From: Escherichia phage FL15
Sequence record: PP400778
Length of the DNA stretch: 64,000 bases
Reading direction: 5' to 3' (one strand)
This document shows, piece by piece, positions 5,005 through 61,894 of this stretch (the stretch's first letter is position 1; each line of letters begins with the position of its first letter). The notes under the pieces are model-generated. The model worked only from the letters and a program-made list of their open reading frames with translations. It did not search any database and was not told the origin of the DNA. The position numbers and the translations under genes were made by a program.

Positions 5005-5008
5005 AATA

Positions 5009-6563: not shown

Positions 6564-6565
6564 AA

Positions 6566-7321: not shown

Positions 7322-7373
7322 AACAAACACCTCACACAATAAATAATTTCATATTATAACAGGAGACCCAATA

Positions 7374-11114: not shown

Positions 11115-11119
11115 TTAAA

Positions 11120-11136
11120 GGGGGCGAAAGCCCCCC
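11120..11136 (+). terminator. GC-rich stem-loop after gene 34 (weak terminator or RNA stability element)
   Basis: GGGGGC-GAAA-GCCCCC hairpin; no clear U-run. Confidence 0.3.
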
Positions 11137-11148
11137 TATGGGGTTATT

Positions 11149-12288: not shown

Positions 12289-12299
12289 CATTTTTAACA

Positions 12300-12328
12300 A
12301 GCCGATCCTCGTGGTCGGCTTTATTTTT
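12300..12328 (+). terminator. intrinsic terminator after gene 35
   Basis: Hairpin AGCCGATCC-TCGT-GGTCGGCT followed by TTATTTTTTA; the same stem recurs at 23316 and 61868. Confidence 0.7.
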
Positions 12329-12450
12329 TATACAGTTGGTTAAAACATAACCAAAACGAAGAAAGATCTTTAGAATAATAGAAAATTTGTTTCGGTTAAA
12401 AAATAGTCAGTGCCTACGGCACGTCGCGAAGCGATATTTTGTTAACATTC

Positions 12451-12458
12451 TATAAATA
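12451..12458 (+). promoter_or_regulatory. T4-type late promoter core TATAAATA
   Basis: Exact TATAAATA about 34 nt upstream of the gene 36 start codon. Confidence 0.45.
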
Positions 12459-12491
12459 CTCGGAACTATAACTAATTTTTGAGGTTACTTT

Positions 12492-13982: not shown

Positions 13983-13987
13983 TTCTA

Positions 13988-14010
13988 GCGGGGATTATCC
14001 CCGCTTTTCT
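13988..14010 (+). terminator. stem-loop / weak terminator after gene 36
   Basis: AGCGGGG-ATTAT-CCCCGCT hairpin followed by TTTT. Confidence 0.45.
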
Positions 14011-14049
14011 AAATAATATTATTCTAACAACCGTTAAGGATTTTATAAA

Positions 14050-16809
14050 ATGGCAGATTTACAGAGAATCCAATTTAAAAGAACAAGTACGGCAGGTCGC
14101 AAGCCGGATGCGAATATTCTAACTCCGGGTGAACTTGCTATTAACCTAGCGGATCGAAAACTATATACAAAAGATGACAGCAATAATGTAATTACTTTGG
14201 GACACTTTCGCGGTGAGTTGCCATCTGATGCAAATTTAGATAATTATGGACCTACTGGTAAATTTACTGGCGTTTGGTCTAAATCAAGTTCAACAAATGC
14301 GCAGCCAGCAAATAAATTCCCAGAAGCGAATGCTGTAGGTGTATTAGAAGTATTTGTGGCTGGTCAATTTGCTGGCAGTCAGCGTTATACTGTTAGATCT
14401 GGTAACGTTTATATCCGTTCTTTGTCTGCGAAATGGAATGGTGTAGATGGTCCATGGGGTCCGTGGCTCAATATTCAAAATGGCACACGTCCACTATCAA
14501 CTACACTAGACTTGAATACTTTAGGTGATGCTTCTCATTTTGGGTTATGGCGAAATAGTTCAAGTTCCATTGCATCATTTTCTCGAAATTACCCAGAAGA
14601 AGGTGGTCTCGCGCAAGGTCTTTTAGAAATTTATGAAGGTGGTAACTATTCTTGCACGCAACGTTATACTACCCGAATGGGTGTTGTATATGTTCGTTGT
14701 CTTGCAGGTGCATGGGATCCAGAAGCTCCGAATTGGGGACCGTGGCAACAAGTAGGTATGGTTACTCCCAGCACATTCTATGACGGGGATCTTAATAATT
14801 TTCGTTCTCCTGGCTTGTATAACATTTTAGGGACTGATGCCGTTATTAACCGTCCAGTTGCAGAAGGTGTTCCGGTTGAGATGACCGGATTGCTTGAGGT
14901 TAAACAGCGTGCTTCCGGTGGCGCTATTTTCCAACGTTTCACTACCGCAGGAACGGGTGCAACTACGCGATCTCGCGTGTTTGAACGTGCAATGACAAAT
15001 AATATCTGGGGAAATTGGTACGAAGTATATACGTCCTATTCTATGCCAATTACTTTGGGTATGGGTGGTGTTAAAACTCAATTAGCGGAGCTAGATTGGC
15101 AAACATTTGATTTTGTTCCTGGTAGTATGTTTAGCGTTCCTTTGAACAAAATAAAGAACATGCCAGCAAATATGAATTGGGGTACGATTGACGGAGACTT
15201 GGTTATGTTTTCTGTCGGTCCTAGCGAACACACTGGCACAGGACGTACTGTTCAGGTTTGGCGTGGTACTGTATCCCAGACAAACTACCGTTATTTTGTC
15301 GTTCGTGTGTTCGGTAATTCTGGAAATAGAACTTGCACAGTTCGCCGTGTTGTTCTTGAAGATGGATCACATACTTGGACTGCTCAACAAAACTTTAGGG
15401 GATTGTTGAATATCACTGCTGCTGTTAATCTTGGTGCTAATCAGAAAATTTCACTTGCTCCAGGAGCATATATTCAAGCCCCTGCTAGCGGTTCTGGTTC
15501 TAATACTTACGCGAATCAGAATACTACCATTGCACCATTATATCAGGCCATTGACGATTCAAATAAAAACCAGTTTGCGCCAATTGTTAAACAGAAAAAC
15601 ACTGTAACAAATATTACTATGGCTTCTGGTATGGATATTGCTAGTTCAGAATATCGTATCGTTGCTCAGGGTGATTTATCCGCTACTGGAACTACAGCCA
15701 CTGAATTAGCTACATGGCGTTTCTTGCCGTCTGGCCGATTCATGTCACAAAGCCGAGTTTATGCTGGCGCAGCATTCTTGAACACTGATGGTAACATTGC
15801 TGGTTCAATCTGGAAGAAATACAACGATGCAACCAATTTAGATGCTGCCTTGAATACTCGCCTAGGTAAAGGCGGTGATACGATGACAGGTCGGTTAACA
15901 ATCAATGCACCTAATGATTCTATCGTATTATCAACAACTGCTAGTAATTCTTTGCATATTCGCGGTGACATAGACGGGACTGGTAACTGGTATATTGGCA
16001 AGGGTGGTGCTGATAATGGATTAGCGTTCTATAGTTATGCTACTAATGCTGCTGTAAACATTACAAACGCGGGGGATATCGCTCTAAGTCCAAAAGGCAT
16101 CGAAATGACTCATGTCAATAACGTTCGATTCTATGTTCATGGTGAACGTTGGACTGCTAGCCAATCTGGAGGTTGGAACGACCAATGGGGATTAGAAGCT
16201 CCGATATTTGTTGACCACGGCTATGTTGGACCAGACAGTTATTATCCGATTATCAAAGGAAGAAGTTTAATCACCAATCAAGGATATACAACTGCCGTCG
16301 ATTTTGGTCTACGTCGTGTCCCTAACAATTGGGGGCAAGCAATTATTCGTGTTGGATCTGCGGAAAACTCGCCAGCGGCTGGTCATCCTCAAGCTGTATT
16401 CGAGTTCCATCATGATGGTACTTTCTATTCTCCAGGTAATGGTAACTTTAACGATGTGTATATTCGTTCCGATGGTCGTCTTAAGATTAATAAAAAAGAG
16501 CTAGAAAACGGAGCACTTGAAAAAGTATGTCGACTGAAAGTTTATATTTACGATAAAGTTAAGTCTATTAAAGACCGTAGTGTTATTAAACGTGAAGTTG
16601 GTATTATTGCTCAGGACCTTGAAAAGGAATTACCGGAAGCTGTATCTAAAGTTGAAGTTGATGGATCTGATGTTCTGACAATTTCTAACTCTGCAGTGAA
16701 TGCTCTTTTAATTAAGGCTATTCAGGAAATGAGTGAAGAAATTAAAGAATTGAAAACGCCTCTCTTTACTAAAATTGCTCGCAAAATTAGTAAATATTTT
16801 AAATTCTAA
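14050..16809 (+). CDS. 37: long tail fibre distal subunit gp37 with C-terminal intramolecular chaperone domain
   Basis: 919 aa; N-terminus MADLQRIQFKRTSTAGRKPDANILTPGELAINLADRKLYTKDDS matches gp37; C-terminal ~100 aa (GIIAQDLEKELPEAV...ISNSAVNALLIKAIQE) resembles S74-type intramolecular chaperone. Confidence 0.9.
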   Translation: MADLQRIQFKRTSTAGRKPDANILTPGELAINLADRKLYTKDDSNNVITLGHFRGELPSDANLDNYGPTGKFTGVWSKSSSTNAQPANKFPEANAVGVLEVFVAGQFAGSQRYTVRSGNVYIRSLSAKWNGVDGPWGPWLNIQNGTRPLSTTLDLNTLGDASHFGLWRNSSSSIASFSRNYPEEGGLAQGLLEIYEGGNYSCTQRYTTRMGVVYVRCLAGAWDPEAPNWGPWQQVGMVTPSTFYDGDLNNFRSPGLYNILGTDAVINRPVAEGVPVEMTGLLEVKQRASGGAIFQRFTTAGTGATTRSRVFERAMTNNIWGNWYEVYTSYSMPITLGMGGVKTQLAELDWQTFDFVPGSMFSVPLNKIKNMPANMNWGTIDGDLVMFSVGPSEHTGTGRTVQVWRGTVSQTNYRYFVVRVFGNSGNRTCTVRRVVLEDGSHTWTAQQNFRGLLNITAAVNLGANQKISLAPGAYIQAPASGSGSNTYANQNTTIAPLYQAIDDSNKNQFAPIVKQKNTVTNITMASGMDIASSEYRIVAQGDLSATGTTATELATWRFLPSGRFMSQSRVYAGAAFLNTDGNIAGSIWKKYNDATNLDAALNTRLGKGGDTMTGRLTINAPNDSIVLSTTASNSLHIRGDIDGTGNWYIGKGGADNGLAFYSYATNAAVNITNAGDIALSPKGIEMTHVNNVRFYVHGERWTASQSGGWNDQWGLEAPIFVDHGYVGPDSYYPIIKGRSLITNQGYTTAVDFGLRRVPNNWGQAIIRVGSAENSPAAGHPQAVFEFHHDGTFYSPGNGNFNDVYIRSDGRLKINKKELENGALEKVCRLKVYIYDKVKSIKDRSVIKREVGIIAQDLEKELPEAVSKVEVDGSDVLTISNSAVNALLIKAIQEMSEEIKELKTPLFTKIARKISKYFKF

Positions 16810-16813
16810 CAAC

Positions 16814-16832
16814 AAGGGGCTTTGCCCCCTTT
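16814..16832 (+). terminator. stem-loop after gene 37
   Basis: AAGGGGC-TTTG-CCCCCTT hairpin; weak U-run. Confidence 0.3.
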
Positions 16833-16844
16833 GGAGTATAAATT

Positions 16845-17627
16845 ATGGCAGTAGTTGGAGTTCCTGGCTGGATTGGAAGTTCAGCCGTAAATGAAACGGG
16901 TCAGCGCTGGATGAGTCAAGCGGCTGGTCAATTAAGATTGGGTGTTCCTTGCTGGATGAGTCAATTTTCAGGTCGCTCGCGAGAAATTATTCACACGCTT
17001 GGCGCAGACCATAACTTCAATGGTCAGTGGTTCCGTGATAGATGCTTTGAGGCAGGTAATGCACCTATAGTGTTTAATATTACCGGTGATTTAGTATCAT
17101 ATTCTAAAGATGTTCCTTTATTCTTCATGTACGGAGATACACCAAATGAATATGTTCAGTTGAATATACATGGCGTAACGATGTATGGTCGTGGCGGGAA
17201 TGGCGGTAGCAATGGTCCTGGATCAGCCGGGGGGCATTGTATTCAAAATGATATTGGTGGGAGACTAAGAATTAATAATGGTGGAGCTATTGCAGGTGGC
17301 GGTGGCGGTGGCGGTGGCGGGTATTATTCTCCTTTTTCACAAATGAGATTAACCTTTGGCGGTGGCGGTGGGCGTCCGTTTGGTGCGCCCGGCGGATCTA
17401 TTGATATGCAATCAGGCGCAACTGCTGGTACTCTTTATGCGCCCGGATCGGGGTCCGTGAACGGTGTCTATAATGGCGGAAGCGGTGGTGAGGTAGGTGC
17501 TGCGGGAGGTAGATGTAATATTCGTGGTCAAGGATCTGAATATAATGGCGGCGATTCTGGATATGCTGTTATAGGGTCTTCTCCAACGTGGCAAAATCGC
17601 GGAGCTATTTACGGACCGGCTGTTTAG
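16845..17627 (+). CDS. 38: T2-type receptor-binding adhesin gp38 (glycine-rich motifs)
   Basis: 260 aa; N-terminus [15 protein letters not shown] and multiple poly-Gly islands separating variable segments are the T2/T6-type gp38 architecture. Confidence 0.85.
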
Positions 17628-17690
17628 ATGTAATTATAAAAAGAATTAAGGAAACCTCCCACGGAAGGGAACTACTAAGGAGAAACGGCT

Positions 17691-17930
17691 ATGGTCTATA
17701 ATATCGTCATTGGTGCTTTGTCTAATTTCGGAATGAAACTATTGTCAAAGTTAATTAGTGAAAAGATGCTCACTAAAATTTTCTTCTATTGCGCTCGTCG
17801 TCTTGCGTCTTATACCAATACGCCAATTGATGATCGTTTTGTGGAAGAACTTTATAAGGAGTTTAATAAAGATCAGTCAGAAGATAGCAACGAGCAAGAT
17901 AAACCTAGTGATAGTCAACTACCTAAATAA
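17691..17930 (+). CDS. hypothetical small protein with hydrophobic N-terminus and acidic C-terminus
   Basis: 79-aa ORF with AAGGAG SD on the late strand between gp38 and holin t; no counterpart at this position in the T4 map as I recall it. Confidence 0.55.
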   Translation: MVYNIVIGALSNFGMKLLSKLISEKMLTKIFFYCARRLASYTNTPIDDRFVEELYKEFNKDQSEDSNEQDKPSDSQLPK

Positions 17931-17963
17931 GAGTACACTGTCATAGTTATCTTAGGGCATTAT

Positions 17964-18620
17964 ATGCAAGTTTCTGAAAAAGGGAAAGACTTTGCTATCT
18001 CAAATGTCCTGCGCGCTATTTTCACAACTAAAAGCACGGAGTTGCTCGTACTTCGTGTTTTTGCTGCCGTCGTGTTGTCCATATTGGCATTTGTCGTTTA
18101 TAGTAAAAACGAGTTATTTGCGCTTTATAAAGAGACTCGTTATGAGACTTATGCTCACATTCTCCAGGTAGAGAAAGACCGCAATTTTGATAATGCAGCA
18201 CAGGAGCAGTTACAGATAGTTCATGTGTCGGCTGATGCCGATTTTTCTGCTGTTTTTAGTTTTCGTCCGAAAAACCTAAACTATTTTGTTGATTTGGTGG
18301 CATATGAAGGAAAGCTACCGCATACAATCGATGAAAAAAATTTAGGCGGATTCCCTATCAATAAAACGAGTGAAGAATATCGTAGGCATCTTTTAGGTAA
18401 ATCATATTTTACCGATAAAGATTTCCAGTATATTCCATCAAGAGAAAAGAAATTAGAGAGTATCGATATAGGGTTTATGTATTCTTGTCCTATATTCAAT
18501 CTCGATAATGTCTATTCTGGTAGTATCGCCATTTCATGGAAGAATAAACCGGATATTGACATTGAGAATTTAGATACTCTTTGCAATCAATCTGCCAGAA
18601 TCCTCGGAAGGATTAGATAA
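17964..18620 (+). CDS. t: holin t
   Basis: 218 aa; matches T4 holin (LEQLQIVH.S.DADFSAV.SFRPKNLNYFVD..AYEGKLP, MYSCP.FNLDN.Y.G.I, ARILGR). Confidence 0.95.
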   Translation: MQVSEKGKDFAISNVLRAIFTTKSTELLVLRVFAAVVLSILAFVVYSKNELFALYKETRYETYAHILQVEKDRNFDNAAQEQLQIVHVSADADFSAVFSFRPKNLNYFVDLVAYEGKLPHTIDEKNLGGFPINKTSEEYRRHLLGKSYFTDKDFQYIPSREKKLESIDIGFMYSCPIFNLDNVYSGSIAISWKNKPDIDIENLDTLCNQSARILGRIR

Positions 18621-18626: not shown

Positions 18627-18659
18627 GGGGAAGCCTTTCGGCCTCCCCTTCTTTTTATT
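18627..18659. terminator. intrinsic terminator at the convergence of the late (+) and early (-) blocks
   Basis: Hairpin GGGGAAGCC-TTTC-GGCCTCCCC followed by TTCTTTTTATT on the plus strand. Confidence 0.65.
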
Positions 18660-18903
18660 GGGGCATAGAAGCCCCTGAATCACATTTTGACGCTGTATGA
18701 TGAAAACAGGTAGCGTACCAGTCATCTGCTTGTTTGTCTTCGTCAGAAAACGCGTAATTTCGTTGTGTGCCGTTTTCTACTTTGACCAGTGCAATAGCTG
18801 TTTCTGGAAGATCAATCAGTCGGACAAAATCACCATCTTCCCACTCTACACGAGCAATATCATATCCCATCTCAAAGTATACAATCGCTTGTTCTAATTT
18901 CAT
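18655..18903 (-). CDS. small protein, possibly DUF2829-like
   Basis: 82 aa; start ATG overlaps upstream stop (ATGA coupling); pattern A..Y...G..IAR.EW...................DDW resembles DUF2829 as I remember it. Confidence 0.5.
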   Translation of the reverse strand: MKLEQAIVYFEMGYDIARVEWEDGDFVRLIDLPETAIALVKVENGTQRNYAFSDEDKQADDWYATCFHHTASKCDSGASMPQ

Positions 18904-19223
18904 TCTGGAAACTTCCCGTAAACATTCTCTGCCAGCTTACGTGCATCTTTTACAATATCTTTCATGTAATGACTATAATTTTTAGCTAGATCAATGATGC
19001 AATCAACAAAGAAGTAATAGCGTCGCAGTGCTACCAGCTCAACATCTTCAAGATGACCATTTTCTCCAATCGCTGAAATATGTTTAAATTCCTTTCGGAT
19101 CGCGTCCATCGCTACATTAACTTCTTTTATAATATCTTTCGTATTATATGCACCTCGACTAATCAAAATTTTGGTTAGGTCTTCTGCTTTTTCGTGAAAG
19201 TTGTCAATTTCAAACTCGATCAT
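18900..19223 (-). CDS. hypothetical protein (paralog of 19338-19670)
   Basis: 107-aa ORF; C-terminal ...KDARKLAENVYGKF aligns with ...DEARIMTENIFGKF of the neighbour. Confidence 0.55.
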   Translation of the reverse strand: MIEFEIDNFHEKAEDLTKILISRGAYNTKDIIKEVNVAMDAIRKEFKHISAIGENGHLEDVELVALRRYYFFVDCIIDLAKNYSHYMKDIVKDARKLAENVYGKFPE

Positions 19224-19337
19224 AATCACCTCTCATAATTTCACTCTGTTGTGTCAACATTTTTTCGTGGTTTGCTAATTCTATACCTTGTAATAGCATA
19301 ACCAGTGCAATTTTCAATGATTCATCATCTTTCATAA

Positions 19338-19670
19338 TCAAAATTTACCGAAAATATTCTCTGTCATAATTCTTGCTTCGTCGATTATTTTCGTCATGTT
19401 CATGGTGTAGTTATGATCATTTAGTGCCTTAATGACAACGAGCAAGGAATCTAAAAACACTCGATACCGGGTATATTCTACGCTATTTGTGAATACCGAT
19501 GTTTTCTCTACTTTATCGATCAGATAGCCTAAAGCCGATAGCGCCTCGTTTACTTCCCTTGTTACTTTATCGGCGCTAAACAACACCGGATAAAGACGCG
19601 GTGTGATTAACCGCGCTGCCTCTTTCAATTCGGTAGCTTTCCATGATTCATATTTGTCATAGTTAAACAT
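19338..19670 (-). CDS. hypothetical protein (paralog of 18900-19223)
   Basis: 110-aa ORF with AAGGAG SD; shares C-terminal half with the neighbouring gene. Confidence 0.55.
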   Translation of the reverse strand: MFNYDKYESWKATELKEAARLITPRLYPVLFSADKVTREVNEALSALGYLIDKVEKTSVFTNSVEYTRYRVFLDSLLVVIKALNDHNYTMNMTKIIDEARIMTENIFGKF

Positions 19671-19682
19671 TGTATAATCTCC

Positions 19683-20015
19683 TTACAGATGAAAACCTGT
19701 TACGATCACCGCATCGATCATACCGCTAGGAATAAACGGTTCGCCCTCTTTTATTTCAACTTTGAATTGATGCCATTTCGCTAATACTTCTTCCGGTACA
19801 CCCAGCGATTCGGCGTCTGCTTTAGTTTCATCCATAATCCAACTAGGCTGCATGAGAGCATAGTTTACATAGTCCATTTCTGGGGTCATGTCATCAATGT
19901 TAATATATTTGCAGTTGACGCGTTTCAGAATTTCAAATTCTTTATTGTCAACCTGTACCATGTATAATTCAGTAGTTTCTGGAATCAGTTCCCACACAAT
20001 CAGTACATTTTTCAT
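19683..20015 (-). CDS. hypothetical protein
   Basis: 110-aa ORF, tightly packed in the early-gene run. Confidence 0.5.
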   Translation of the reverse strand: MKNVLIVWELIPETTELYMVQVDNKEFEILKRVNCKYINIDDMTPEMDYVNYALMQPSWIMDETKADAESLGVPEEVLAKWHQFKVEIKEGEPFIPSGMIDAVIVTGFHL

Positions 20016-20023
20016 AGTTCACC

Positions 20024-20392
20024 TCACTTAACAAAGATTTTCTTTAATGCTTTCAGGATCGTTGCTTCCGGTGCTTCTTCCGGTGGAGGAAGCAATTCTA
20101 CCACTTCCTCTTCCAACTCGATATAGTCTACCAGATATTCTACATAGAATGCAAGTGCTTCCATGAAATTAGATGCTACATCCGATTCACCACAAGCGCC
20201 TACATGCATTGTATAAACATCACTGCGATCAAGTTTGTGGATGCTTCCCAGATAGTTTCGGTTATACCAGACTTCCCACACTTTCAGCTTTCCGGTTTTG
20301 GTTGCTGTTTTATAATCGGTTTCGTAATGATGCAATTGACGTTGCAAATCATTGATAATAACACATTTTTCGTAATTGTTTTGAATTTCCAT
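20024..20392 (-). CDS. hypothetical protein
   Basis: 122-aa ORF with GAGGA SD. Confidence 0.5.
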   Translation of the reverse strand: MEIQNNYEKCVIINDLQRQLHHYETDYKTATKTGKLKVWEVWYNRNYLGSIHKLDRSDVYTMHVGACGESDVASNFMEALAFYVEYLVDYIELEEEVVELLPPPEEAPEATILKALKKIFVK

Positions 20393-20402
20393 GATGTAAT
20401 CC

Positions 20403-20594
20403 TCACTTATCGTTAAGAAGTTCTAAAACTTTCTGTCGTACTTTGTCAATATTAGTTGATTCAAAAACTGTACGGTATCCCCAGCTTTGACCGTATGATC
20501 GCGAGCAATCCCCATATCCCCATTGTTCAACCTGATAGTATTCAAGGAATGGGTGCTGCCGAACTATGATACCATCGCGATTAAAAATTACCAT
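20403..20594 (-). CDS. hypothetical small protein
   Basis: 63-aa ORF with GAGGA SD. Confidence 0.45.
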   Translation of the reverse strand: MVIFNRDGIIVRQHPFLEYYQVEQWGYGDCSRSYGQSWGYRTVFESTNIDKVRQKVLELLNDK

Positions 20595-20617
20595 AATATA
20601 ATCCTCACGTCAACAAC

Positions 20618-20905
20618 TTATTTTCGGTTGTGGTCACGATATGTTTTAAAATATCCCTCGTACCACGGTAAAATATCTGGATTTTTACCACTATACAGAC
20701 CTTTAACCATCATGTCAATAAGGCCATCTGGTGTTTGATAGTTTCCAGCTTTTATAAGCTCTCTGATTAAAATCTCTCTGTATATGTCTTTCGGATCTTC
20801 GTAATCAACTTGTATTGTGGTTGTTGTCTCGCTTAATTTGGTTTCTGGAGTATCTTGCATCGCCTTCCACCAATCTTTTGTAATCTTCATGTTATTGAAT
20901 TGCAT
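20618..20905 (-). CDS. hypothetical protein
   Basis: 95-aa ORF. Confidence 0.45.
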   Translation of the reverse strand: MQFNNMKITKDWWKAMQDTPETKLSETTTTIQVDYEDPKDIYREILIRELIKAGNYQTPDGLIDMMVKGLYSGKNPDILPWYEGYFKTYRDHNRK

Positions 20906-20916
20906 AATTTAACCTC

Positions 20917-21675
20917 TTACTTGCAAACGTATTGATCTACATCAATTGCTCCACCGAATGTAGGATGACGTTTTTCAAATCGAATAGTTCCGTCGTTTGG
21001 TTCGAAAACGGAGTATTCATATAGATCTTTCTTGCCAACATTCTTATAAAACCCGCCTTTAGTCATAACGGTTTCTTGTACGTTTGCTTTGTGTACGTTG
21101 TATTCATCAATGTATACAAAATCAACCATCTTCCCATTTTTAATGGTTACTTTAAGATCCCCTGGCTGGTTTCCATATTTTGCATACAGTGGAGCCTCTT
21201 TAATTTTTGTGGAAATTCCATCTTTCATACTCCACTCATAACGAACGGTGCATTGATAGGTAAAAGTTTCGACCTTCGGTTCTTCTACCACTTTTGCTTC
21301 CTGTTTCGGTTGTTCTTCTTCAACCTTCGCAGAAGTCTCTGAATCGCTTTCTGACGCGGTTTCTTCTTTAGGTAATACATTCATCAAGTTTTGGATTTGA
21401 GCGTTATATACAGCCTCCAGTGGCTGAATCTGCCCGATATTGATCATTGTATCACGAACAGTTTTATTCCAGTTTCGTTGCTCTTGTTTCAGAGACGGAT
21501 CAATCTTAACAGCCTTAACATACACCTCATGAAGTTTAGAGTCCAGTGCGGAGATAGACTCATTAGCACAAATAAACTTCTCTGATTTGGTAGTAGCTTT
21601 AGCGCAATCAAAGGACGCAGCGTTAGCACCGAAAGCAGTAGCAGAAAGAACGATAGCAGCGATAATGTTTTTCAT
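20917..21675 (-). CDS. secreted protein with N-terminal LprI-like (DUF1311) domain
   Basis: 252 aa; signal peptide MKNIIAAIVLSATAFGANA; then C-x10-E-x2-IC...LDSKLHEVY matching the DUF1311 Cys/Leu/Tyr pattern; Glu/Lys-rich linker; C-terminal domain unknown. Confidence 0.6.
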   Translation of the reverse strand: MKNIIAAIVLSATAFGANAASFDCAKATTKSEKFICANESISALDSKLHEVYVKAVKIDPSLKQEQRNWNKTVRDTMINIGQIQPLEAVYNAQIQNLMNVLPKEETASESDSETSAKVEEEQPKQEAKVVEEPKVETFTYQCTVRYEWSMKDGISTKIKEAPLYAKYGNQPGDLKVTIKNGKMVDFVYIDEYNVHKANVQETVMTKGGFYKNVGKKDLYEYSVFEPNDGTIRFEKRHPTFGGAIDVDQYVCK

Positions 21676-21699
21676 AATATATTCCTCAGTGTTTTGTCT

Positions 21700-21740
21700 T
21701 GATGGGAGTATCTTACTACTCCCTTAATCCGGTGTCAACT
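21700..21740 (-). promoter_or_regulatory. early promoter cassette with palindrome (PeSL-like)
   Basis: Minus strand GTTGAC (21734-21739), then palindrome GGGAGTA-N6-TACTCCC (21704-21723) enclosing a TAAGAT -10, upstream of ATG 21675. Confidence 0.5.
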
Positions 21741-21749
21741 ACTTTTAAA

Positions 21750-22010
21750 TTATTTTCGCCATTCACCGGAAACAATAAAGTTTGTAAAGTGATCGTGGTC
21801 CATGATAACGTCATTAAGTACCATATGCGGATATGCTTTAGTGTAATCACGTTTACGATCAGTCATCCAGCCAACGAAAGTTGGTGCAAAGTACGGTACA
21901 CCGTCAGACGATGCCATATTAAACCCTTTATCAACCATAAATGCAGCCGCCCTAAGATTTTTAATTGAAGTAGTGCGACTAATTTCAAAAACTTTATCGG
22001 TAAAATTCAT
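21750..22010 (-). CDS. hypothetical protein
   Basis: ORF; start at MNFTDK (ATG 22010) directly after the upstream stop. Confidence 0.5.
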   Translation of the reverse strand: MNFTDKVFEISRTTSIKNLRAAAFMVDKGFNMASSDGVPYFAPTFVGWMTDRKRDYTKAYPHMVLNDVIMDHDHFTNFIVSGEWRK

Positions 22011-22011
22011 T

Positions 22012-22221
22012 TTAAGCCCCCGCTCGTGCATTAATACGCATTTTCTGTATAGCCATGATCTGGTTTACTGCTTCTTCTTTACGTTCTTGCGTGATAATGT
22101 GACCAGATTCCGCAAACTCTCCAGCAACTTCTTCTACGATCTCGCGAACTTGAGAACGTCCAAAGATGCGGTTTCCTTCGTAGCTCATAAACTCTGTTAC
22201 TACTTGCTCGATAGATTTCAT
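22012..22221 (-). CDS. hypothetical small protein
   Basis: 69-aa ORF preceded by conserved leader AAAGGAGAATCAC. Confidence 0.5.
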   Translation of the reverse strand: MKSIEQVVTEFMSYEGNRIFGRSQVREIVEEVAGEFAESGHIITQERKEEAVNQIMAIQKMRINARAGA

Positions 22222-22244
22222 GTGATTCTCCTTTCGTTTGGTAT

Positions 22245-22280
22245 GGGAGTATCTTACTACTCCCTTATCTTTACGTCAAC
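22245..22280 (-). promoter_or_regulatory. early promoter cassette with palindrome (PeSL-like)
   Basis: GTTGAC (22275-22280) plus GGGAGTA-N6-TACTCCC palindrome (22245-22264), near-identical to the 21700 copy. Confidence 0.5.
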
Positions 22281-22286
22281 TAGTTT

Positions 22287-22529
22287 TTAGAAATTTTTCG
22301 CTTCTTCTTCGGTCATCATAACCGCGCATTCGTGCATAACTTTGAAAACCGGATCAATCATGTCGAATGCTTCGCGGGACAGTTTACGAGAAGCGATTTT
22401 GATTGCTTCTACGTCTTCTACTACAGGAACAAAAACAGTTTTCAGTTCGTCGAGGACGGCAGCTTCTTTTTCATTCAGGAAGATCCCAGCGTCGTACAGT
22501 GCAACTTCGATAACATTAACTTTAACCAT
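22287..22529 (-). CDS. hypothetical small protein
   Basis: 80-aa ORF with GGAGG SD. Confidence 0.5.
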   Translation of the reverse strand: MVKVNVIEVALYDAGIFLNEKEAAVLDELKTVFVPVVEDVEAIKIASRKLSREAFDMIDPVFKVMHECAVMMTEEEAKNF

Positions 22530-22559
22530 TTTATTTCCTCCAGTTCGTTTCGGTATGGG

Positions 22560-22592
22560 AGTATAATACTACCGATGACCTTTGGCGTCAAC
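22560..22592 (-). promoter_or_regulatory. early promoter cassette (PeSL-like, degenerate palindrome)
   Basis: GTTGAC (22587-22592), -10 TATTAT/TATACT inside GGGAGTATAATACTACC, conserved leader CCCATACCGAAAC. Confidence 0.45.
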
Positions 22593-22792
22593 TAGTTTTT
22601 TGTTATTTTCGTGAAATTTTTCGTCGCCTCATGTGCTTTTCGCTGGGCTTCTTGTTGTGCTTGCTGGCGTGCTGCCTCTTGCGATGTCATAACAGACGCA
22701 TTTGCAGCAGTTACAGCCGCGACCATCGCTGCGGTATTAGCATTTACCGTACATGCACTAGCCAGCAAAGCAATCGCAATCATTTTCTTCAT
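22592..22792 (-). CDS. small secreted protein (signal peptide)
   Basis: 66 aa; MKKMIAIALLASACTVNA signal-like N-terminus then Ala/Gln-rich mature part; AAAGGGGAA SD. Confidence 0.5.
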   Translation of the reverse strand: MKKMIAIALLASACTVNANTAAMVAAVTAANASVMTSQEAARQQAQQEAQRKAHEATKNFTKITKN

Positions 22793-22959
22793 AGTTTCCC
22801 CTTTAGGTTATCTTCGACCTTCACCCATTCCGCGTATTCTTGCGCGGCTACTTTCGGATTTAAGCCGTCTTCGTACATTGCTTCAAGTAATTCTTCGTCG
22901 GTGGGCTTATACCCTAGATAAGCCTCCACCTGATTTTTCCAAATTTTATACCAGTTCAT
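22789..22959 (-). CDS. hypothetical small protein
   Basis: ORF; start at MNWYKIWK abuts the upstream stop. Confidence 0.45.
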   Translation of the reverse strand: MNWYKIWKNQVEAYLGYKPTDEELLEAMYEDGLNPKVAAQEYAEWVKVEDNLKGKL

Positions 22960-22963
22960 ATTA

Positions 22964-23236
22964 TCACCAATCAAGAGCGCGTGTCTCTGCGTCTTCCCAT
23001 GCTTGATCCATAACAGCCTTGAAAACATATTCTAGAGTATCATCTTTAGAGAATCCGAAGACCTTAGACGGAATATCTTCAATTGCTACTCCCGCAACTT
23101 CTGCATTACGCGCTTGGCAATAATGCAACTCTAAGTTATCGAGATAGCGACCGCCTAATTTCTCCATATCATCCCAGCATTTCCAGTAACCTACTTTATC
23201 TGCAATTGCCAACACTTTGCTGTTTTCGTTGTTCAT
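22964..23236 (-). CDS. hypothetical protein
   Basis: ORF starting MNNENSKVLAIADKV with leader AAAGGAGAATCAAAG. Confidence 0.5.
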   Translation of the reverse strand: MNNENSKVLAIADKVGYWKCWDDMEKLGGRYLDNLELHYCQARNAEVAGVAIEDIPSKVFGFSKDDTLEYVFKAVMDQAWEDAETRALDW

Positions 23237-23267
23237 CTTTGATTCTCCTTTTGTTTGGTATGGGTGT

Positions 23268-23296
23268 ATTATGCAATGCTGGATTATGGAAGTCAA
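23268..23296 (-). promoter_or_regulatory. sigma70-type early promoter
   Basis: Minus strand TTGACT (23291-23296), 17-nt spacer, CATAAT; leader ACCCATACCAAAC...GGAGAATCA conserved with other cassettes. Confidence 0.45.
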
Positions 23297-23307
23297 ACAA
23301 CTTTTCA

Positions 23308-23337
23308 AATAAAAAAGCCGACCACAAGGATCGGCTT
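23308..23337 (-). terminator. intrinsic terminator
   Basis: Minus strand AGCCGATCC-TTGT-GGTCGGCT + TTTTTTATTT; same stem as the terminators at 12300 and 61868. Confidence 0.7.
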
Positions 23338-23346
23338 AATAGTCAG

Positions 23347-23742
23347 TTACTTACTAAATTTCTTTTTGGCTTCGTCTACTGCATGAGATGCCAGCACCGC
23401 TGCCGCATGTGCACTTTTATCTGTGTTGCATAGAACACCCAGATAAACATCACGCCAAAGTTTAATCATCTCGTAGATCATATCAATATCATTTTCTTGT
23501 TTGTTGGCGATGCTATTCGTCGTTATCTGGTAAGGCAACGGCTTGATCTGTACTGGTTCCGCCATCGGGCTAATCGGTTTCGGATCAGTCATAATAGGTG
23601 CTGTTGTTGGTGGTGTTTTCCATACACCATTATTCCACGGTTTAATCGTTGTATCGTAAAGTTTATAAGGATTTTTGTCTGGATTAACCATCCAGGCATG
23701 ATGAGTACCCAAACCATTTGAAGTAATGCGTCGTTCAGTCAT
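23347..23742 (-). CDS. hypothetical Pro-rich protein
   Basis: 131-aa ORF followed by a strong terminator. Confidence 0.5.
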   Translation of the reverse strand: MTERRITSNGLGTHHAWMVNPDKNPYKLYDTTIKPWNNGVWKTPPTTAPIMTDPKPISPMAEPVQIKPLPYQITTNSIANKQENDIDMIYEMIKLWRDVYLGVLCNTDKSAHAAAVLASHAVDEAKKKFSK

Positions 23743-23944
23743 ACTTTCCCTCCAAAAATTCTTTCATCAAATAGTCTATCGTTGCTCTGTGTTCTGGTGT
23801 GTTTGTTATCTCTGCTAACTTGTTCAGAGATTCAATAGTGATCCGGTTGGCTTCTTCCATAGTCTCAACGACCATCGGTACAATCTTTTTATTGTTGTAC
23901 ACGAAAGCCACATAACCGCCTTCTGGATATTCTTTCATAATCAA
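23735..23944 (-). CDS. hypothetical small protein
   Basis: 69-aa ORF immediately downstream of gene 52. Confidence 0.5.
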   Translation of the reverse strand: MIMKEYPEGGYVAFVYNNKKIVPMVVETMEEANRITIESLNKLAEITNTPEHRATIDYLMKEFLEGKYD

Positions 23945-30123: not shown

Positions 30124-30155
30124 TTTGATTCTCCTAAGTGGTATCTCGTTTCGAT

Positions 30156-30191
30156 GGGGACATTATGATATATCCCCGATCCAGTGTCAAC
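30156..30191 (-). promoter_or_regulatory. early promoter cassette with palindrome (PeSL-like)
   Basis: Minus strand TTGACA (30185-30190), 17-nt spacer, CATAAT; palindrome GGGGATATATCATAATGTCCCC encloses the -10. Confidence 0.5.
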
Positions 30192-30199
30192 AACTTTTT

Positions 30200-30499: not shown

Positions 30500-30533
30500 T
30501 ATTCAATCCTCATAAAAGAAAAGGGAGACTCCC

Positions 30534-30561
30534 ATTATAGAGAATCTCCCTTGTATGTCAA
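30534..30561 (-). promoter_or_regulatory. sigma70-type early promoter (TTGACA-16-TATAAT)
   Basis: Minus strand TTGACA (30556-30561) and TATAAT (30534-30539) with GGGAGA...TCTCCC inverted repeats around the -10. Confidence 0.5.
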
Positions 30562-31121
30562 CTAAAATTTAAAGATGCAAACTCCCCGTGATGAATTTTT
30601 GCATATTCATCATATGCTCTAGCGGCTTCCTCCTGAGTAGCAAACGATCCTATGTATTTTCTGTATCCGTTTATCCTTATTTGTGCTTGCCACGGTCTTT
30701 TGCTAGATCCTTTGCGATGAGTAACACCATTATATATGCTCGTGCACCCGTCCATTTTCTTTTTATTGTACATGTTTTGTTGTTGTGTTGCCTCCCGTAA
30801 ATTTGGTGGATTGTTGTTTTCTGGATTCCCGTCTATGTGGTCTATTACCTTAACCTGTGTTCCATATTCAAGAAACCAGACAATTCTATGTACAAGATAT
30901 GTAGATGTTCTCTTTTTAACCTTATTGTAAACATCTATTGCCAAATGACCGTAATTTAACTTTTTTGTTTTTACTTTATCACCGACTCGGTAGAAATATC
31001 CCTCTGGTAGACCATTAAAAGACGGACTATTTGTTTTGTGATATAGAACACCTTCCGTGTGTTCAAATCTGCGTTTTAATTCCTCTTGAATTTCAGTATT
31101 CCAAAATTTCGCACTTTTCAT
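30558..31121 (-). CDS. free-standing HNH homing endonuclease with AP2 domain (paralog of 6758-7321)
   Basis: 187 aa; LVHRIVWFLEYGTQVKVIDHIDGNPENNNPPNLREATQQQN and YNGVTH...WQAQIRINGYRKYIGSFATQEEAARAYD; begins 1 nt after the gp39 stop. Confidence 0.8.
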   Translation of the reverse strand: MKSAKFWNTEIQEELKRRFEHTEGVLYHKTNSPSFNGLPEGYFYRVGDKVKTKKLNYGHLAIDVYNKVKKRTSTYLVHRIVWFLEYGTQVKVIDHIDGNPENNNPPNLREATQQQNMYNKKKMDGCTSIYNGVTHRKGSSKRPWQAQIRINGYRKYIGSFATQEEAARAYDEYAKIHHGEFASLNFS

Positions 31122-36773: not shown

Positions 36774-36834
36774 AATTGATTCTCCTTAGTTGGTATGGGT
36801 GTATTATTGTCTATCTGGTTTGTGCTGTCAACAC

Positions 36835-37338: not shown

Positions 37339-37340
37339 AA

Positions 37341-37371
37341 TAAAAAAGCCTCCAATCTTTCGACGGGAGGC
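37341..37371 (-). terminator. intrinsic terminator after gene 56
   Basis: Minus strand GCCTCCC-loop-GGAGGC hairpin followed by TTTTTTATT. Confidence 0.55.
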
Positions 37372-37400
37372 ATAATAAAACCATGATAGAGTAGTGTCAA
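37372..37400 (-). promoter_or_regulatory. sigma70-type early promoter
   Basis: Minus strand TTGACA (37395-37400), 17-nt spacer, TATTAT (37372-37377), overlapping the terminator. Confidence 0.45.
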
Positions 37401-37407
37401 CTAATTT

Positions 37408-46385: not shown

Positions 46386-46417
46386 AATATAAACTCCTTC
46401 ACTTACGAAAGACACTC

Positions 46418-46446
46418 ATTATAGGGGAATCGACTTAGTTTGTCAA
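46418..46446 (-). promoter_or_regulatory. sigma70-type promoter upstream of gene 43
   Basis: Minus strand TTGACA (46441-46446), 17-nt spacer, TATAAT (46418-46423). Confidence 0.55.
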
Positions 46447-46467
46447 TACCCCTATCCCATCAGTATC

Positions 46468-52963: not shown

Positions 52964-53223
52964 CGTACAGACCCCATAGATCCACGCGCAATAACATTCT
53001 GGGTAATATCAGCAACCTTACGGGATACGATGTTTGTTAGCCCCTCTTTGGTGATATTTTCACGATCAAATGGGATTTCGTCATGAGTCCACAAACCATA
53101 GTTAGATCGAAATGATAGCATATACTGACCATCTCGCACAACCTCAAATACATGGATCTTAGTGAATTTCGATAAACCTTCGTTGATTTCTTTCAATGCA
53201 TTAGTAATCATAACAACCTCCAA
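52960..53223 (-). CDS. hypothetical protein
   Basis: 87-aa ORF downstream of a promoter/stem-loop cassette. Confidence 0.5.
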   Translation of the reverse strand: MEVVMITNALKEINEGLSKFTKIHVFEVVRDGQYMLSFRSNYGLWTHDEIPFDRENITKEGLTNIVSRKVADITQNVIARGSMGSVR

Positions 53224-53236
53224 TCAATTTTTAGAG

Positions 53237-53265
53237 AGTATAACGGGGATTTCTCCCCGCGTCAA
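53237..53265 (-). promoter_or_regulatory. early promoter with stem-loop in the spacer (PeSL-like)
   Basis: Minus strand TTGACG (53260-53265), spacer containing CGGGGA-GAAA-TCCCCG hairpin, TATACT (53237-53242). Confidence 0.5.
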
Positions 53266-60628: not shown

Positions 60629-60670
60629 ATTTGATTCTCCTGTAAAGTTGTATCTCGTCTTGATGAATAT

Positions 60671-60699
60671 AGTATAGGGGATCGCGAGATCCCCGTCAA
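60671..60699 (-). promoter_or_regulatory. early promoter with perfect palindrome in the spacer (PeSL-like)
   Basis: Minus strand TTGACG (60694-60699), spacer GGGGATC-GCGA-GATCCCC, TATACT (60671-60676). Confidence 0.5.
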
Positions 60700-60703
60700 G
60701 CAT

Positions 60704-61794: not shown

Positions 61795-61823
61795 GTTGTC
61801 CTCTCGTTGTTTTCGATGTGAGC

Positions 61824-61851
61824 ATTATACATGAGCTAATCATGTTGTCAA
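61824..61851 (-). promoter_or_regulatory. sigma70-type early promoter (TTGACA-16-TATAAT)
   Basis: Minus strand TTGACA (61846-61851), TATAAT (61824-61829), leader CATCGAAAACAACGAGAGGA. Confidence 0.6.
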
Positions 61852-61862
61852 CACCCCAAAAC

Positions 61863-61894
61863 GAAAAAGCCGACCCTTTCGGATCGGCTAAAAA
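61863..61894 (-). terminator. intrinsic terminator after nrdD
   Basis: AGCCGATCC-GAAA-GGGTCGGCT hairpin flanked by A/T runs on both sides; third copy of this conserved stem. Confidence 0.7.

Follow-up and report, generated by a model that had tools for sequence, protein, structure and literature searches.

Promoter-early stem-loops (PeSLs) were defined in the T4-type phages RB49 and phi1 by Arbiol et al. (2010, Genome Biol Evol 2:140, PMC2839356), and the sections of that paper cited here describe each element as an AT-rich region, a sigma-70-like early promoter, a stem-loop and a Shine-Dalgarno sequence with start codon, with about 51-52 PeSLs per genome in the RB49/phi1 group. The commonest stem positions given there for the two phages are between the -35 box and the -10 box, or such that the stem overlaps the latter. 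The same sections present lacZ evidence for promoter and terminator activity: in RB49, promoter activity was assayed for PeSL193/192 and PeSL206/205 and the stem-loop for PeSL211/210, the stem-loop acted as a terminator or attenuator in uninfected E. coli, and a stem with a poor U-tract lowered downstream expression to an extent comparable with the rrnB T1 terminator. PeSL mini-circles have also been reported, with site-specific recombination left open by the authors in the cited parts of PMC2839356 and PMC4122927, and Comeau et al. 2014 (PMC4122927) widened the set of PeSLs to PST/T4 and nt-1/KVP40. Mapped 5' ends of early RB49 transcripts agree with the published consensus for its early promoters, in which C is preferred at -3 to -1 (Nolan et al. 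2006, PMC1524935).

The 64-kb window (the whole stretch of DNA analysed here) belongs to a Krischvirus, an RB49-like T4-type coliphage, with 98-99.6% nucleotide identity to Krischvirus genomes (phages FL37 and kaaroe); the figure is 96.9-98.1% for RB49 records and 97.5% for phi1. We put the probability that its repeat cassettes are PeSLs, the compound regulatory elements of T4-like phages of the RB49/phi1 type, at about 0.9. Because the cassettes are real and the window comes from an RB49-type phage, they are a correct rediscovery of elements already known, from which they show no essential difference. The RB49/phi1 elements and those of the window share genus, architecture (a stop codon in the AT-rich stretch, promoter boxes, a polyG...polyC stem, Shine-Dalgarno sequence and ATG), placement 5' of ORFans in hyperplastic regions, and association with indels. 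The tested RB49 elements PeSL211/210, which reads TTGACAGGGGATCACGTATCCCCTATACT, and PeSL206/205, which reads TTGACAGGGGATCGGTGATCCCCTATAAT, are near-identical in sequence to window cassettes and share their design with the window cassette at 60699 and with the G-module cassette of related phages; 62/80 aligned positions are identical between the 60699 cassette and the terminator-tested PeSL211/210. The sequence-only reading had named PeSLs as the match, and the RB49-type origin, together with the architecture and stem positions given in the cited sections of PMC2839356, bears this out: from the letters alone it recognised, and named correctly, a repeat family that is real, statistically strong and coherent in function. 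Our additions to the published picture are small, namely invariant stems with varying loops, -10 positions 3-4 among them, across 13 genomes, a focal class without a U-tract, and crossovers that fall in the flanks and not in the palindrome. The 13-genome comparison lends independent support, with junctions in the AT-rich/-35 stretch and the leader, and stems under purifying selection.

Across the whole window, matches of at least 11/12 to TTGACA-N16-18-TATAAT number 29 on the minus strand, which is the sense, transcribed strand, and 0 on the plus strand, against 1.16 +/- 1.18 in shuffled sequence (200 dinucleotide shuffles); of perfect 12/12 matches there are 11, against 0.04 expected. The enrichment appears only at 10/12 or above and with the strands counted separately, and a lax scan of the window at 9/12 or above showed none (55 found, 56.3 expected). 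About 18 promoters sit 26-61 nt 5' of a start codon, in keeping with the earlier estimate of at least a dozen promoter-led minus-strand genes, and the GEC-3S record has promoters annotated at sites orthologous to those of the window. Among 17 aligned cassettes TTGAC, the A at -11 and the T at -7 are invariant, and the consensus is GTTGACA-N17-TATAAT-nCnCCCAT..AA..GAGGA.TATATTATG. The early promoters of T4 (with a UP-like A-tract, GTTTAC/-35 and TATAAT; Miller et al. 2003; Hinton 2010, PMC2988021; PMC1524935) likewise depend on the host sigma-70 holoenzyme, and share with the window promoters an A-rich -40 to -44 region, a conserved G at -36, C as the preferred base from -3 to -1, and large numbers, all on the early-gene strand. 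Unlike those of T4, RB49-type promoters prefer TTGACA (G at -33) and carry embedded stem-loops and long conserved leaders, because of which they act as repeated homology.

A PeSL unit occupies the interval between one small early gene's stop codon and the next gene's start codon, and comprises an UP-like stretch rich in A/T, a promoter close to the host sigma-70 consensus ((G)TTGAC(A/G)-N17-TAnnnT), a stem-loop, a discriminator and a leader. The predicted stem-loop is short and GC-clamped, its first arm a G-run and its second a C-run; the discriminator is C-rich, and the conserved leader is unstructured, A/C-rich and supplied with a GGAG/GAGG Shine-Dalgarno sequence. In the focal cassettes the upstream gene's stop codon lies in the AT-rich stretch before the -35 box (TAATTTAAAAGTAG-TTGACA from 21749; TAAAAACTAG-TTGACG from 22286; TAG-TTGACG at 22591). 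PeSLs are characterised by conservation over about 100 bp, with the Shine-Dalgarno sequence and start codon of the next gene at the 3' end, and cassettes of the window show this arrangement, with leaders of the form CCCATACCAAAC..GGAGAATCA..ATG and CATCGAAAAC..GAGAGGA..ATG. The leaders form a repeat family of four copies (21696, 22237, 22549 and 23254), which, with the 17-cassette consensus, upholds the leader conservation proposed from the first inspection.

The focal cassettes, all on the minus strand, lie in the gp52-holin region ahead of ORFs of 69, 80 and 252 aa. Cassette A (21676..21749) extends from the stop of a 93-aa ORF to the ATG of the 252-aa ORF, which matches LprI in Pfam, and is conserved in 13/13 genomes. 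Its promoter scores 10/12 (-35 TTGACA 21738-21733, 17-nt spacer, -10 TAAGAT 21715-21710), its stem-loop GGGAGTA-GTAAGA-TACTCCC (21723-21704) overlaps the -10 box and discriminator, and the predicted +1 is the A at 21703, followed by the leader ATCAAGACAAAACACTGAGGAATATATTATG. Cassette B (22222..22286), 5' of the 69-aa ORF, has a promoter that scores only 9/12 (-35 TTGACG 22279-22274, 17-nt spacer, -10 TAAGAT 22256-22251), an identical stem-loop at 22264-22245, a predicted +1 at A 22244 and the leader ATACCAAACGAAAGGAGAATCACATG; its orthologues are present in 13/13 genomes, with a loop (the -10 box) that varies between TAAGAT, TAACAT, TAATAT and TATTAT. Cassette C (22530..22591), which is PeSL-type and lies 5' of the 80-aa ORF with the stop codon TAG abutting its -35 box, has a 10/12 promoter (-35 TTGACG 22591-22586, 17-nt spacer, -10 TATTAT 22568-22563) and a leader of the A/B family (CCCATACCGAAAC...GGAGG); its palindrome GGTAGTA-TTA-TACTCCC (22573-22557), whose arms have one mismatch and whose loop is 3 nt long, is degenerate and not predicted to fold (z = -1.26). 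Cassette D (23237..23346) has its stem-loop upstream of the -35 box, as a terminator-like hairpin AAGCCGATC-CTTGT-GGTCGGCTT with a T-run (23337-23315), followed by -35 TTGACT 23296-23291, -10 CATAAT 23273-23268 and the leader ACACCCATACCAAACAAAAGGAGAATCAAAGATG. The motif GGGAGTA-GTAAGA-TACTCCC has exactly 2 window matches at up to 2 mismatches against 0.06 expected. A pattern scan recovered the core TTGAC-N10-GGGAGTA-N6-TACTCCCA in 9 copies on 3 viral contigs, and in Krischvirus contigs it lies 5' of at least 6 unrelated ORFs. In the gp52-holin stretch, the 66-, 69-, 80- and 93-aa ORFs had no Pfam match.

Elsewhere in the window the same parts recur on the minus strand in other arrangements. 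The 60699 cassette (60629..60703) has -35 TTGACG 60699-60694 and -10 TATACT 60676-60671, a stem GGGGATC-TCGC-GATCCCC (60694-60677) that fills the spacer, and the leader ...CATCAAGACGAG...GGAGAATCAAATATG; the cassette at 53265 (53212..53265), between gp47 and the next ORF, joins a TAG stop to -35 TTGACG 53265-53260, with the stem CGGGGA-GAAA-TCCCCG at 53259-53244 and -10 TATACT at 53242-53237. At 30190 (30124..30199; -35 TTGACA 30190-30185) the stem GGGGAUAU-AUCAUA-AUGUCCCC overlaps the -10 box CATAAT and the leader is CCCCATCGAAAC...GGAGAATCAAAATG, and at 30561 (30500..30561) a perfect promoter (TTGACA 30561-30556, 16-nt spacer, TATAAT) has its -10 box enclosed by the stem AAGGGAGA...TCTCCCTT with a T-run (30552-30521). 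The regA/gp43 intergenic cassette (46386..46467) has a perfect promoter (TTGACA 46446, 17-nt spacer, TATAAT) enclosed by an imperfect stem TAGGGG...CCCCTA (z = -3.9). In the cassette at 37400 (37339..37407; TTGACA 37400, 17-nt spacer, TATTAT) the stem-loop lies 3' of the -10 box (GCCTCC-N12-GGAGGC plus T6; z = -2.6), with the 5' arm at about +1 and the Shine-Dalgarno sequence in the 3' arm. At 61851 (61795..61894) a terminator hairpin GCCGATCC-GAAA-GGGTCGGC with T5 comes before the promoter, which is perfect (TTGACA 61851, 16-nt spacer, TATAAT) and is followed by the leader CATCGAAAACAACGAGAGGA, and the cassette at 36831 (36774..36834; TTGACA 36831, 17-nt spacer, AATAAT) is stem-less (z = +0.2) with the leader CCCATACCAAC...GGAGAATCA.

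By position, the stems lie over the -10 box and discriminator (21738, 22279), between the boxes (60699, 53265), upstream of the -35 box (23296, 61851) or downstream of the -10 box (37400, 43717, 48473); the cassettes at 36831, 3795, 1474 and 2700 have no stem and that at 22591 has a decayed one. The sequence-only reading had quoted four palindromes (21704, 22245, 60677 and 53244), placing the -10 box inside the palindrome or the palindrome in the spacer; all four are where it put them, with correct sequences on the minus (sense) strand. Folded as RNA, the focal hairpins of A and B, with a 7-bp stem, have a predicted energy of -11.9 kcal/mol (z = -3.9 and -4.3); for DNA the value is -5.6 kcal/mol. 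A local fold of z < -2, corresponding to a GC-clamped stem-loop, was found at 8/20 gene-proximal promoters against 0.5 expected (binomial p ~8e-9). Proximal and distal promoters differed weakly in fold z (Mann-Whitney p = 0.09), partly because the transferred gene map had placed the stem-bearing promoters 30561 and 33036 in the wrong class, as far from a gene.

In all 12 other Krischvirus genomes examined, the orthologous promoters carry the palindromes, whose absence there would have told against the original proposal. Across the 13 genomes, variable columns amount to 2/42 in stems, against 6/15 in loops and 14/52 in spacers free of a stem (Fisher p = 0.001). Stem conservation equals that of the -35 and -10 boxes, and at 23296, a promoter without a stem in its spacer, the spacer varies freely (10/17 columns). 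No compensatory double substitutions in stems were seen across these genomes, and the only two single stem changes comprise one that is G.U-compatible and one that breaks a pair, so that stem conservation fits RNA structure or a DNA palindrome alike and structure is unprovable in this way at this divergence. The G-rich arm comes first on the sense strand in 10/11 promoter-overlapping stems (p = 0.012), which points to a strand-specific, RNA-level constraint.

For the window copies we infer both transcription starts and termination. Early transcription would be started by the E. coli RNA polymerase holoenzyme at the A directly after the C-run, and a stem over the spacer or the -10/discriminator would then be missing from the cassette's own mRNA and present in read-through RNA from upstream; the focal stems would be absent from the cassette's own transcript because they end at -1, and confined to read-through RNA because they overlap the promoter. 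The sequence-only reading had correctly seen that the palindrome lies upstream of the predicted start, but its suggestion that the palindromes may therefore act at the DNA level does not follow, as the stem is transcribed in read-through RNA and terminator/attenuator activity is on record in the cited sections of PMC2839356. In read-through RNA the stem may act as a terminator, an attenuator or a 3'-end hairpin, and so insulate each small gene module. This insulator role has been shown for one RB49 stem-loop, of the class between -35 and -10, and probably extends, with less certainty, to the U-tract-less GGGAGTA-N6-TACTCCC class.

The cassette hairpins resemble intrinsic terminators in being GC-rich and placed in the 3' UTR of the upstream gene, and about half of those in the window have a canonical T-run (23337, 30552, 37400, 42374, 61886), whereas the focal hairpins and several others (30190, 43717) lack a U-tract, and the focal ones overlap a promoter. 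The cassettes at 23337, 30552 and 37400 reach the usual level of at least 5 T in 8 nt; the focal stems do not, and a sense-strand terminator scan made no call on them. Downstream of the focal stems, where one base in 10 nt is a T, the sequence is AUACCAAAC or AUCAAGAC (ATACCAAAC or ATCAAGACA), and they are therefore not canonical intrinsic terminators. Termination on the antisense strand was considered and dropped, the 22245 palindrome being terminator-like on the plus strand and the 21704 copy not. An Rfam search of both strands of the whole window gave 0 matches at gathering score to any described RNA family.

Comparison of 13 genomes shows the stretch from gp52 to the 252-aa ORF to be a mosaic of small ORF modules. 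Junctions fall at 21751-21727 (duplicated AT-rich sequence plus -35), at 22300 (just 5' of a -35 box), at 21754 (the AT-rich edge) and at 23270-23238, within the leader of cassette D, where the H module is inserted in phages Brandy and SSG23. Relative to the near-identical phage kaaroe three further differences begin exactly at a -35 box (30561), in a leader (30149-30135) or at the ATG after a cassette (2640), and the presence/absence junction of the kaaroe ORF k167 falls in the leader of the 30190 cassette. The left edge of the 93-aa ORF (~22019) is an exception, lying at a stop codon without a cassette; otherwise the recombination breakpoints that the sequence-only reading had proposed to look for in related genomes are found on cassette edges. 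These small-gene indel junctions fit the prediction of the PeSL shuffling model. Stretches of about 20-35 nt of AT-rich/-35 and of leader sequence recur at many intergenic sites, and because the flanks are repeated in this way homologous recombination could shuffle the ORFs between them; the phage's own homologous recombination would thereby exchange, delete and insert flanked ORFs, each transferred gene presumably bringing a promoter and an insulator along. The junction pattern is observed, and the DNA-level role that the data support is homologous exchange in the cassette flanks, not in the palindrome itself.

Against transcript insulation by the stems must be set the view that they are sites for structure-specific recombination, either integron attC-like hairpins or cruciforms cut by endonuclease VII, that drive site-specific excision and insertion of ORF mini-circles. 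The modules are indeed cassette-like, and the reported mini-circles, with site-specific recombination left open in the cited parts of PMC2839356 and PMC4122927, would suit it; we nevertheless hold it very improbable indeed, as the sequence shared or duplicated at every resolvable junction is an AT-rich/-35 stretch, a leader or an ATG and never the palindrome, and different palindromes often stand on the two sides of an insertion (GGGGATCGGCGATCCCC and GGGAGTAGTAAGATACTCCC around the G module). A dimeric phage or host protein binding the inverted repeat as an operator, and so repressing early promoters or timing their shut-off at the DNA level, would explain why the palindrome covers the -10 box and discriminator, a classic repressor position, why stems are conserved without covariation, and why one identical GGGAGTA-N6-TACTCCC core stands before at least 6 unrelated genes. 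Between cassettes, however, the arms are unrelated (GGGAGTA, GGGGATC, CGGGGA, GCCTCC, GGCGGGT), the loops range from 3 to 16 nt and the stems are differently placed with respect to the promoter, so that pairing ability and not a recognition sequence is held in common; the G-arm-first bias (10/11) is unexpected for a symmetric DNA site, and a PeSL stem-loop terminated in uninfected E. coli (PMC2839356, cited sections). We regard operators as very improbable. For GGGAGTA-N6-TACTCCC taken by itself, the broader claim that it is a recognition structure, whether an operator for an early-shut-off protein or a folded single-strand or cruciform attC-like recombination site, is quite improbable and keeps what small probability it has because stem conservation without covariation fits RNA and DNA alike; if true, it would turn PeSL modules into a genuine site-specific system of gene cassettes in lytic phages.

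That the stems are instead RNA 3'-end or processing hairpins, which block 3' exonucleases after endonucleolytic cleavage and set the stability of the upstream mini-cistron mRNA without terminating transcription, is unlikely in our estimate. At -11.9 kcal/mol the focal hairpins form stable RNA folds yet have no U-tract, they lie about 25-45 nt past the upstream stop codon, and GGAG, the T4 RegB target, occurs in the 5' arm as well as in the Shine-Dalgarno sequence, with RB49 regB diverged (PMC3014915); on the other hand, the rrnB T1-like reporter drop given in the cited sections of PMC2839356 for a U-tract-poor PeSL stem fits termination or attenuation, and about half of the window hairpins have T-runs. 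It is scarcely credible, and already disfavoured, that the cassettes are simply strong early promoters whose palindromes are chance or functionless leftovers of duplication: cassettes without a stem (36831, 3795, 1474, 2700) or with a decayed one (22591) are still conserved, but in 13 genomes existing stems vary no more than the -35 and -10 boxes do, in contrast to the freely varying loops and 23296 spacer (10/17 columns), and z < -2 occurs in 8/20 promoters against 0.5 expected.

As promoter-led, insulated modules flanked by shared homology, PeSLs explain how small accessory genes are gained and lost in T4-type phages without disturbing the expression of their neighbours. They resemble phage morons and integron cassettes in that small accessory genes, each with a promoter and terminator of its own, come and go as units, and the circular intermediates proposed for PeSL modules recall integron gene cassettes. 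Moron gain, by contrast, is thought to proceed by illegitimate recombination without conserved linkers, and integrons use an integrase and folded attC sites, whereas the window cassettes have their junctions in ordinary repeated flanking homology, with no dedicated recombinase evident. The 93-aa ORF (21750-22031) upstream of cassette A is a homologue of phi1 ORFan263.1, which the cited sections of PMC2839356 list as a phi1-unique ORFan within hyperplastic regions. An HNH-AP2 endonuclease gene is inserted directly 5' of the 30561 cassette, ending TAG-TTGACA.

Sequence comparison indicates that the promoter cassettes of the window are an already known feature, the promoter early stem-loops (PeSLs) named in RB49 and phi1 by Arbiol et al. 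2010 (PMC2839356), which confirms the observation of repeated cassettes made in the sequence-only reading and supports its interpretation; every PeSL-defining feature that can be tested in sequence is present. In the published account PeSLs number ∼51-52 per genome and favour hyperplastic regions upstream of ORFans, PeSL206/205 has strong promoter activity, the PeSL211/210 stem-loop has a terminator-like effect on par with rrnB T1, and modular shuffling via PeSLs, with mini-circles, is proposed (PMC2839356). We took both elements from the RB49 record (as a pair, TTGACAGGGGATCGGTGATCCCCTATAAT... and TTGACAGGGGATCACGTATCCCCTATACT...), and they share the design of the window cassette with its -35 at 60699 and of the cassette that accompanies the G module, a 51-aa ORF, in relatives; cassette 60699 matches PeSL211/210 at 62 of 80 aligned positions. 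For the orthologues of the three focal cassettes, promoters are already annotated in the GenBank record of GEC-3S.

Megablast of 21400-23000 and 18001-43000 matched 58 and 81 phage records, respectively, with Krischvirus genomes as the best matches (FL37, 99.6%; kaaroe, 99.2%; LF73P4) and identities of 96.9-98.1% to RB49 records and 97.5% to phi1. Annotation transferred from kaaroe places td, frd, gp32, gp59, dsbA and rnh at 1-6750 (minus strand), tail-fibre genes gp34-37 and holin t at 7374-18620 (plus), a series of small ORFs of unassigned function at 18655-23940 (minus) and, after 23940, a minus-strand run of gp52, rIIB, rIIA, gp39, dexA, dda, srd, modA, gp61, gp41 and uvsX, continued by gp43, regA, gp62/44/45, gp46/47, gp55, nrdG and nrdD. 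The window spans the early and replication genes of a T4-type coliphage resembling RB49, and the hyperplastic region in which the focal cassettes lie is bounded by gp52 and the holin gene. Downstream of cassette A, a 252-aa ORF (20917-21675, minus) has a signal-peptide-like N-terminus (MKNIIAAIVLSATAFGANA) and a Pfam match to LprI (lysozyme inhibitor, formerly DUF1311; E = 1.4e-5), and it may encode an early protein of the periplasm that resembles lysozyme inhibitors.

A lax consensus scan of the window (≥9/12) gave no enrichment of promoter matches. At ≥11/12 there were 29 matches on the minus strand and none on the plus strand, against 1.16 ± 1.18 in 200 dinucleotide shuffles, and perfect 12/12 matches numbered 11 (0.04 expected). 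Where at least a dozen minus-strand genes had been credited with near-consensus promoters, we count ∼18 stringent ones, 26-61 nt 5′ of a start codon. Alignment of 17 cassettes gave the consensus AAA..TT..AAAAA.T.GTTGACA-N17-(G)TATAAT-nCnCCCAT..AA..GAGGA.TATATTATG, with TTGAC, A-11 and T-7 invariant, and the proposed leader conservation is borne out by repeat family D5 (copies at 21696, 22237, 22549 and 23254), a common leader and stem block. Four perfect predicted promoters lie in coding sequence without a stem-loop (29755, 27797, 6711 and 6154, minus strand): one in a small ORF, 81 nt 5′ of rIIA, another within rIIA itself and two in or near rnh. A translation-initiation block, GAGGAWTATATTATG in minus-strand reading, is conserved at no fewer than eight gene starts, including genes without their own promoter (repeat families D2/D4; 20385, 20587, 21669, 29639, 42312, 52665, 57211 and 58956).

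On the minus strand, the intergenic regions of the focal cassettes read TAATTTAAAAGTAG-TTGACA-ccggattaagggagtag-TAAGAT-actcccAtcaagacaaaacactGAGGaatatattATG (A, 21749-21676), TAAAAACTAG-TTGACG-taaagataagggagtag-TAAGAT-actcccAtaccaaacgaaaGGAGaatcacATG (B, 22286-22222) and TAG-TTGACG-ccaaaggtcatcggtag-TATTAT-actcccAtaccgaaacgaactGGAGGaaataaaATG (C, 22591-22530). All four palindromes of the sequence-only reading were recovered: GGGAGTA-N6-TACTCCC at 21723-21704 and 22264-22245, with no other window match at ≤2 mismatches (0.06 expected), GGGGATC-TCGC-GATCCCC at 60694-60677 and CGGGGA-GAAA-TCCCCG at 53259-53244 (both minus). The palindrome of cassette C is decayed and no fold is predicted there. 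For the focal hairpins the predicted folding energy is -11.9 kcal/mol in RNA form (z = -3.9 and -4.3) and -5.6 kcal/mol in DNA form, and local fold z falls below -2 in 8 of 20 gene-proximal promoters (∼0.5 expected, p ∼ 8e-9).

With the 17-nt spacer, the focal 5′ arm GGGAGTA occupies -20 to -14 and the loop, G plus TAAGA, -13 to -8, so that the -10 hexamer lies mostly inside the loop; the 3′ arm TACTCCC occupies -7 to -1, and the next A is the predicted start. The RB49 early-promoter consensus, including a preference for C at -3 to -1, has been reported as consistent with 5′-end mapping of early transcripts (PMC1524935). The placing of the palindromes mostly upstream of the predicted start therefore holds for the focal stem, and since it ends at -1, the cassette's own mRNA would lack the stem and only read-through RNA from upstream would include it. 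Across the window, stems occupy every position known from the literature (cassettes by -35 start, minus strand): between the boxes at 60699 and 53265, over the -10 at 21738, 22279, 30190 and 30561, enclosing the -35 at 46446, upstream of the -35 with a T-run at 23296 and 61851, and directly downstream of the -10 at 37400, 43717 and 48473. The G-rich arm comes first on the sense strand in 10 of 11 promoter-overlapping stems (p = 0.012). A hairpin between gp45 and gp44 (48411-48431, minus; GGGGAGTAT-AAA-ATACTCCCC, then GTTTTAAT) has arms identical in sequence to those of the focal palindrome and lies directly 3′ of a -10 box, so its own predicted transcript would start at or in the stem.

Palindromes were found at the orthologous promoters in all 12 other Krischvirus genomes from which the same region was compared. 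Among the 13 genomes, 2 of 42 stem columns vary (C-to-T in phi1, keeping a G.U pair; C-to-A in GEC-3S, breaking the pair), against 6 of 15 loop columns and 14 of 52 stem-free spacer columns (Fisher p = 0.001); in the spacer at 23296, a stem-less promoter, 10 of 17 columns are variable, and -10 variants comprise TAAGAT, TAACAT, TAATAT, TATTAT and TAAAAT. By this pattern, the stems are under purifying selection. No compensatory stem changes occur among the 13 genomes, so selection at the RNA level is indistinguishable from selection at the DNA level. In IMG/VR, TTGAC-N10-GGGAGTA-N6-TACTCCCA has nine copies on three Krischvirus-like contigs, before at least six unrelated ORFs and with differing spacers and leaders.

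From gp52 to the 252-aa ORF the 13 genomes form a mosaic of small ORF modules, whose indel and replacement junctions lie at cassette flanks, as the sequence-only reading had suggested looking for, with one exception. The two cassettes flanking the G module have AAATTTAAAAAGTAGTTGACA in common, overlapping at window 21751-21727; the 66-aa and 80-aa modules, absent from RB49 and phi1, have their right edge at 22300, immediately 5′ of the -35 at 22279; and in Brandy and SSG23 the H module (68 aa) comes with a duplication of the leader, 23270-23238. The 93-aa ORF (21750-22031) is a homologue of phi1 ORFan263.1, listed by Arbiol et al. as a phi1-unique ORFan of hyperplastic regions (PMC2839356); its right edge is an AT-rich stretch at 21754, and its left edge, the exception, is the 69-aa ORF stop codon, where there is no cassette. 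Its kaaroe homologue has 106 aa, with ∼39 extra nt at window 21815-21847 marked repeat_region in GenBank. Whole-window comparison with kaaroe added three differences touching cassettes exactly: an HNH-AP2 endonuclease gene (30558-31121, minus), absent from kaaroe, is an insertion that separates the gp39 stop codon from the -35 at 30561; kaaroe ORF k167 (195 nt) is missing, its junction falling within the cassette 30190 leader at 30135-30149, after CCCCATCGAAA; and the ORF after cassette 2700 is replaced, divergence beginning at its ATG, 2640. At every resolvable junction the two sides have flanking sequence in common, whether AT-rich/-35, leader or ATG, and in no case the palindrome, and cassette pairs flanking insertions often carry different palindromes.

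The published PeSL reading is best supported: a host-polymerase early promoter would be fused to a hairpin acting on read-through RNA, in a cassette repeated often enough to provide portable homology for recombination. That the palindromes are incidental is disfavoured, since stems are more strongly conserved than loops, and the mapping of crossovers to the flanks speaks against a structure-specific recombination site. An operator is likewise disfavoured, as arm sequences, loop lengths and positions vary between cassettes and the arms show strand bias. A role of the stem in RNA 3′-end protection is a live alternative, if an improbable one. As to the hairpin action within the PeSL reading, the focal stems are followed by AUACCAAAC or AUCAAGAC without a U-tract, so this class is not a canonical intrinsic terminator; the PeSL211/210 stem, itself assayed, is followed only by UAUACUAC, and a bare GC-clamped stem may thus be enough for a terminator-like effect. 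What small novelty remains lies in the function of a stem overlapping the -10 box. In antisense (plus-strand) reading the cassette B palindrome (22245-22264) is followed by TTATCTTTAC and scores terminator-like; the 21704 copy does not, and the antisense terminator is probably incidental.

Several further features were observed. The endonuclease ORF at 30558-31121 (187 aa) and its paralogue at 6758-7339 (minus, 193 aa), in the divergent intergenic region from the rnh cluster to gp34, are both free-standing, homing-endonuclease-like ORFs with HNH_3 + AP2 domains; the two have a 65-nt DNA block in common (83% identical), and both are absent from kaaroe. The distal tail-fibre (gp37) region, 14155-17637, is replaced relative to kaaroe (∼3.5 kb vs 2.6 kb), with one fragment 73% identical. 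Tandem paralogous small ORFs at 58138-59972 and 63802-64000 have a common 69-nt block (67-74% identical; repeat family D1) at their 5′ ends, and those at 59445-59972 and 63802-64000 carry the note VOG4723 in the kaaroe record. Finally, a PeSL-like arrangement lies inside the coding region of the glutaredoxin ORF (57510-57541, minus), where the stem GGTCGGG-N12-CCCGACC surrounds a TTGACA -35, followed by TATGAT, with the next ORF start ∼108 nt downstream.
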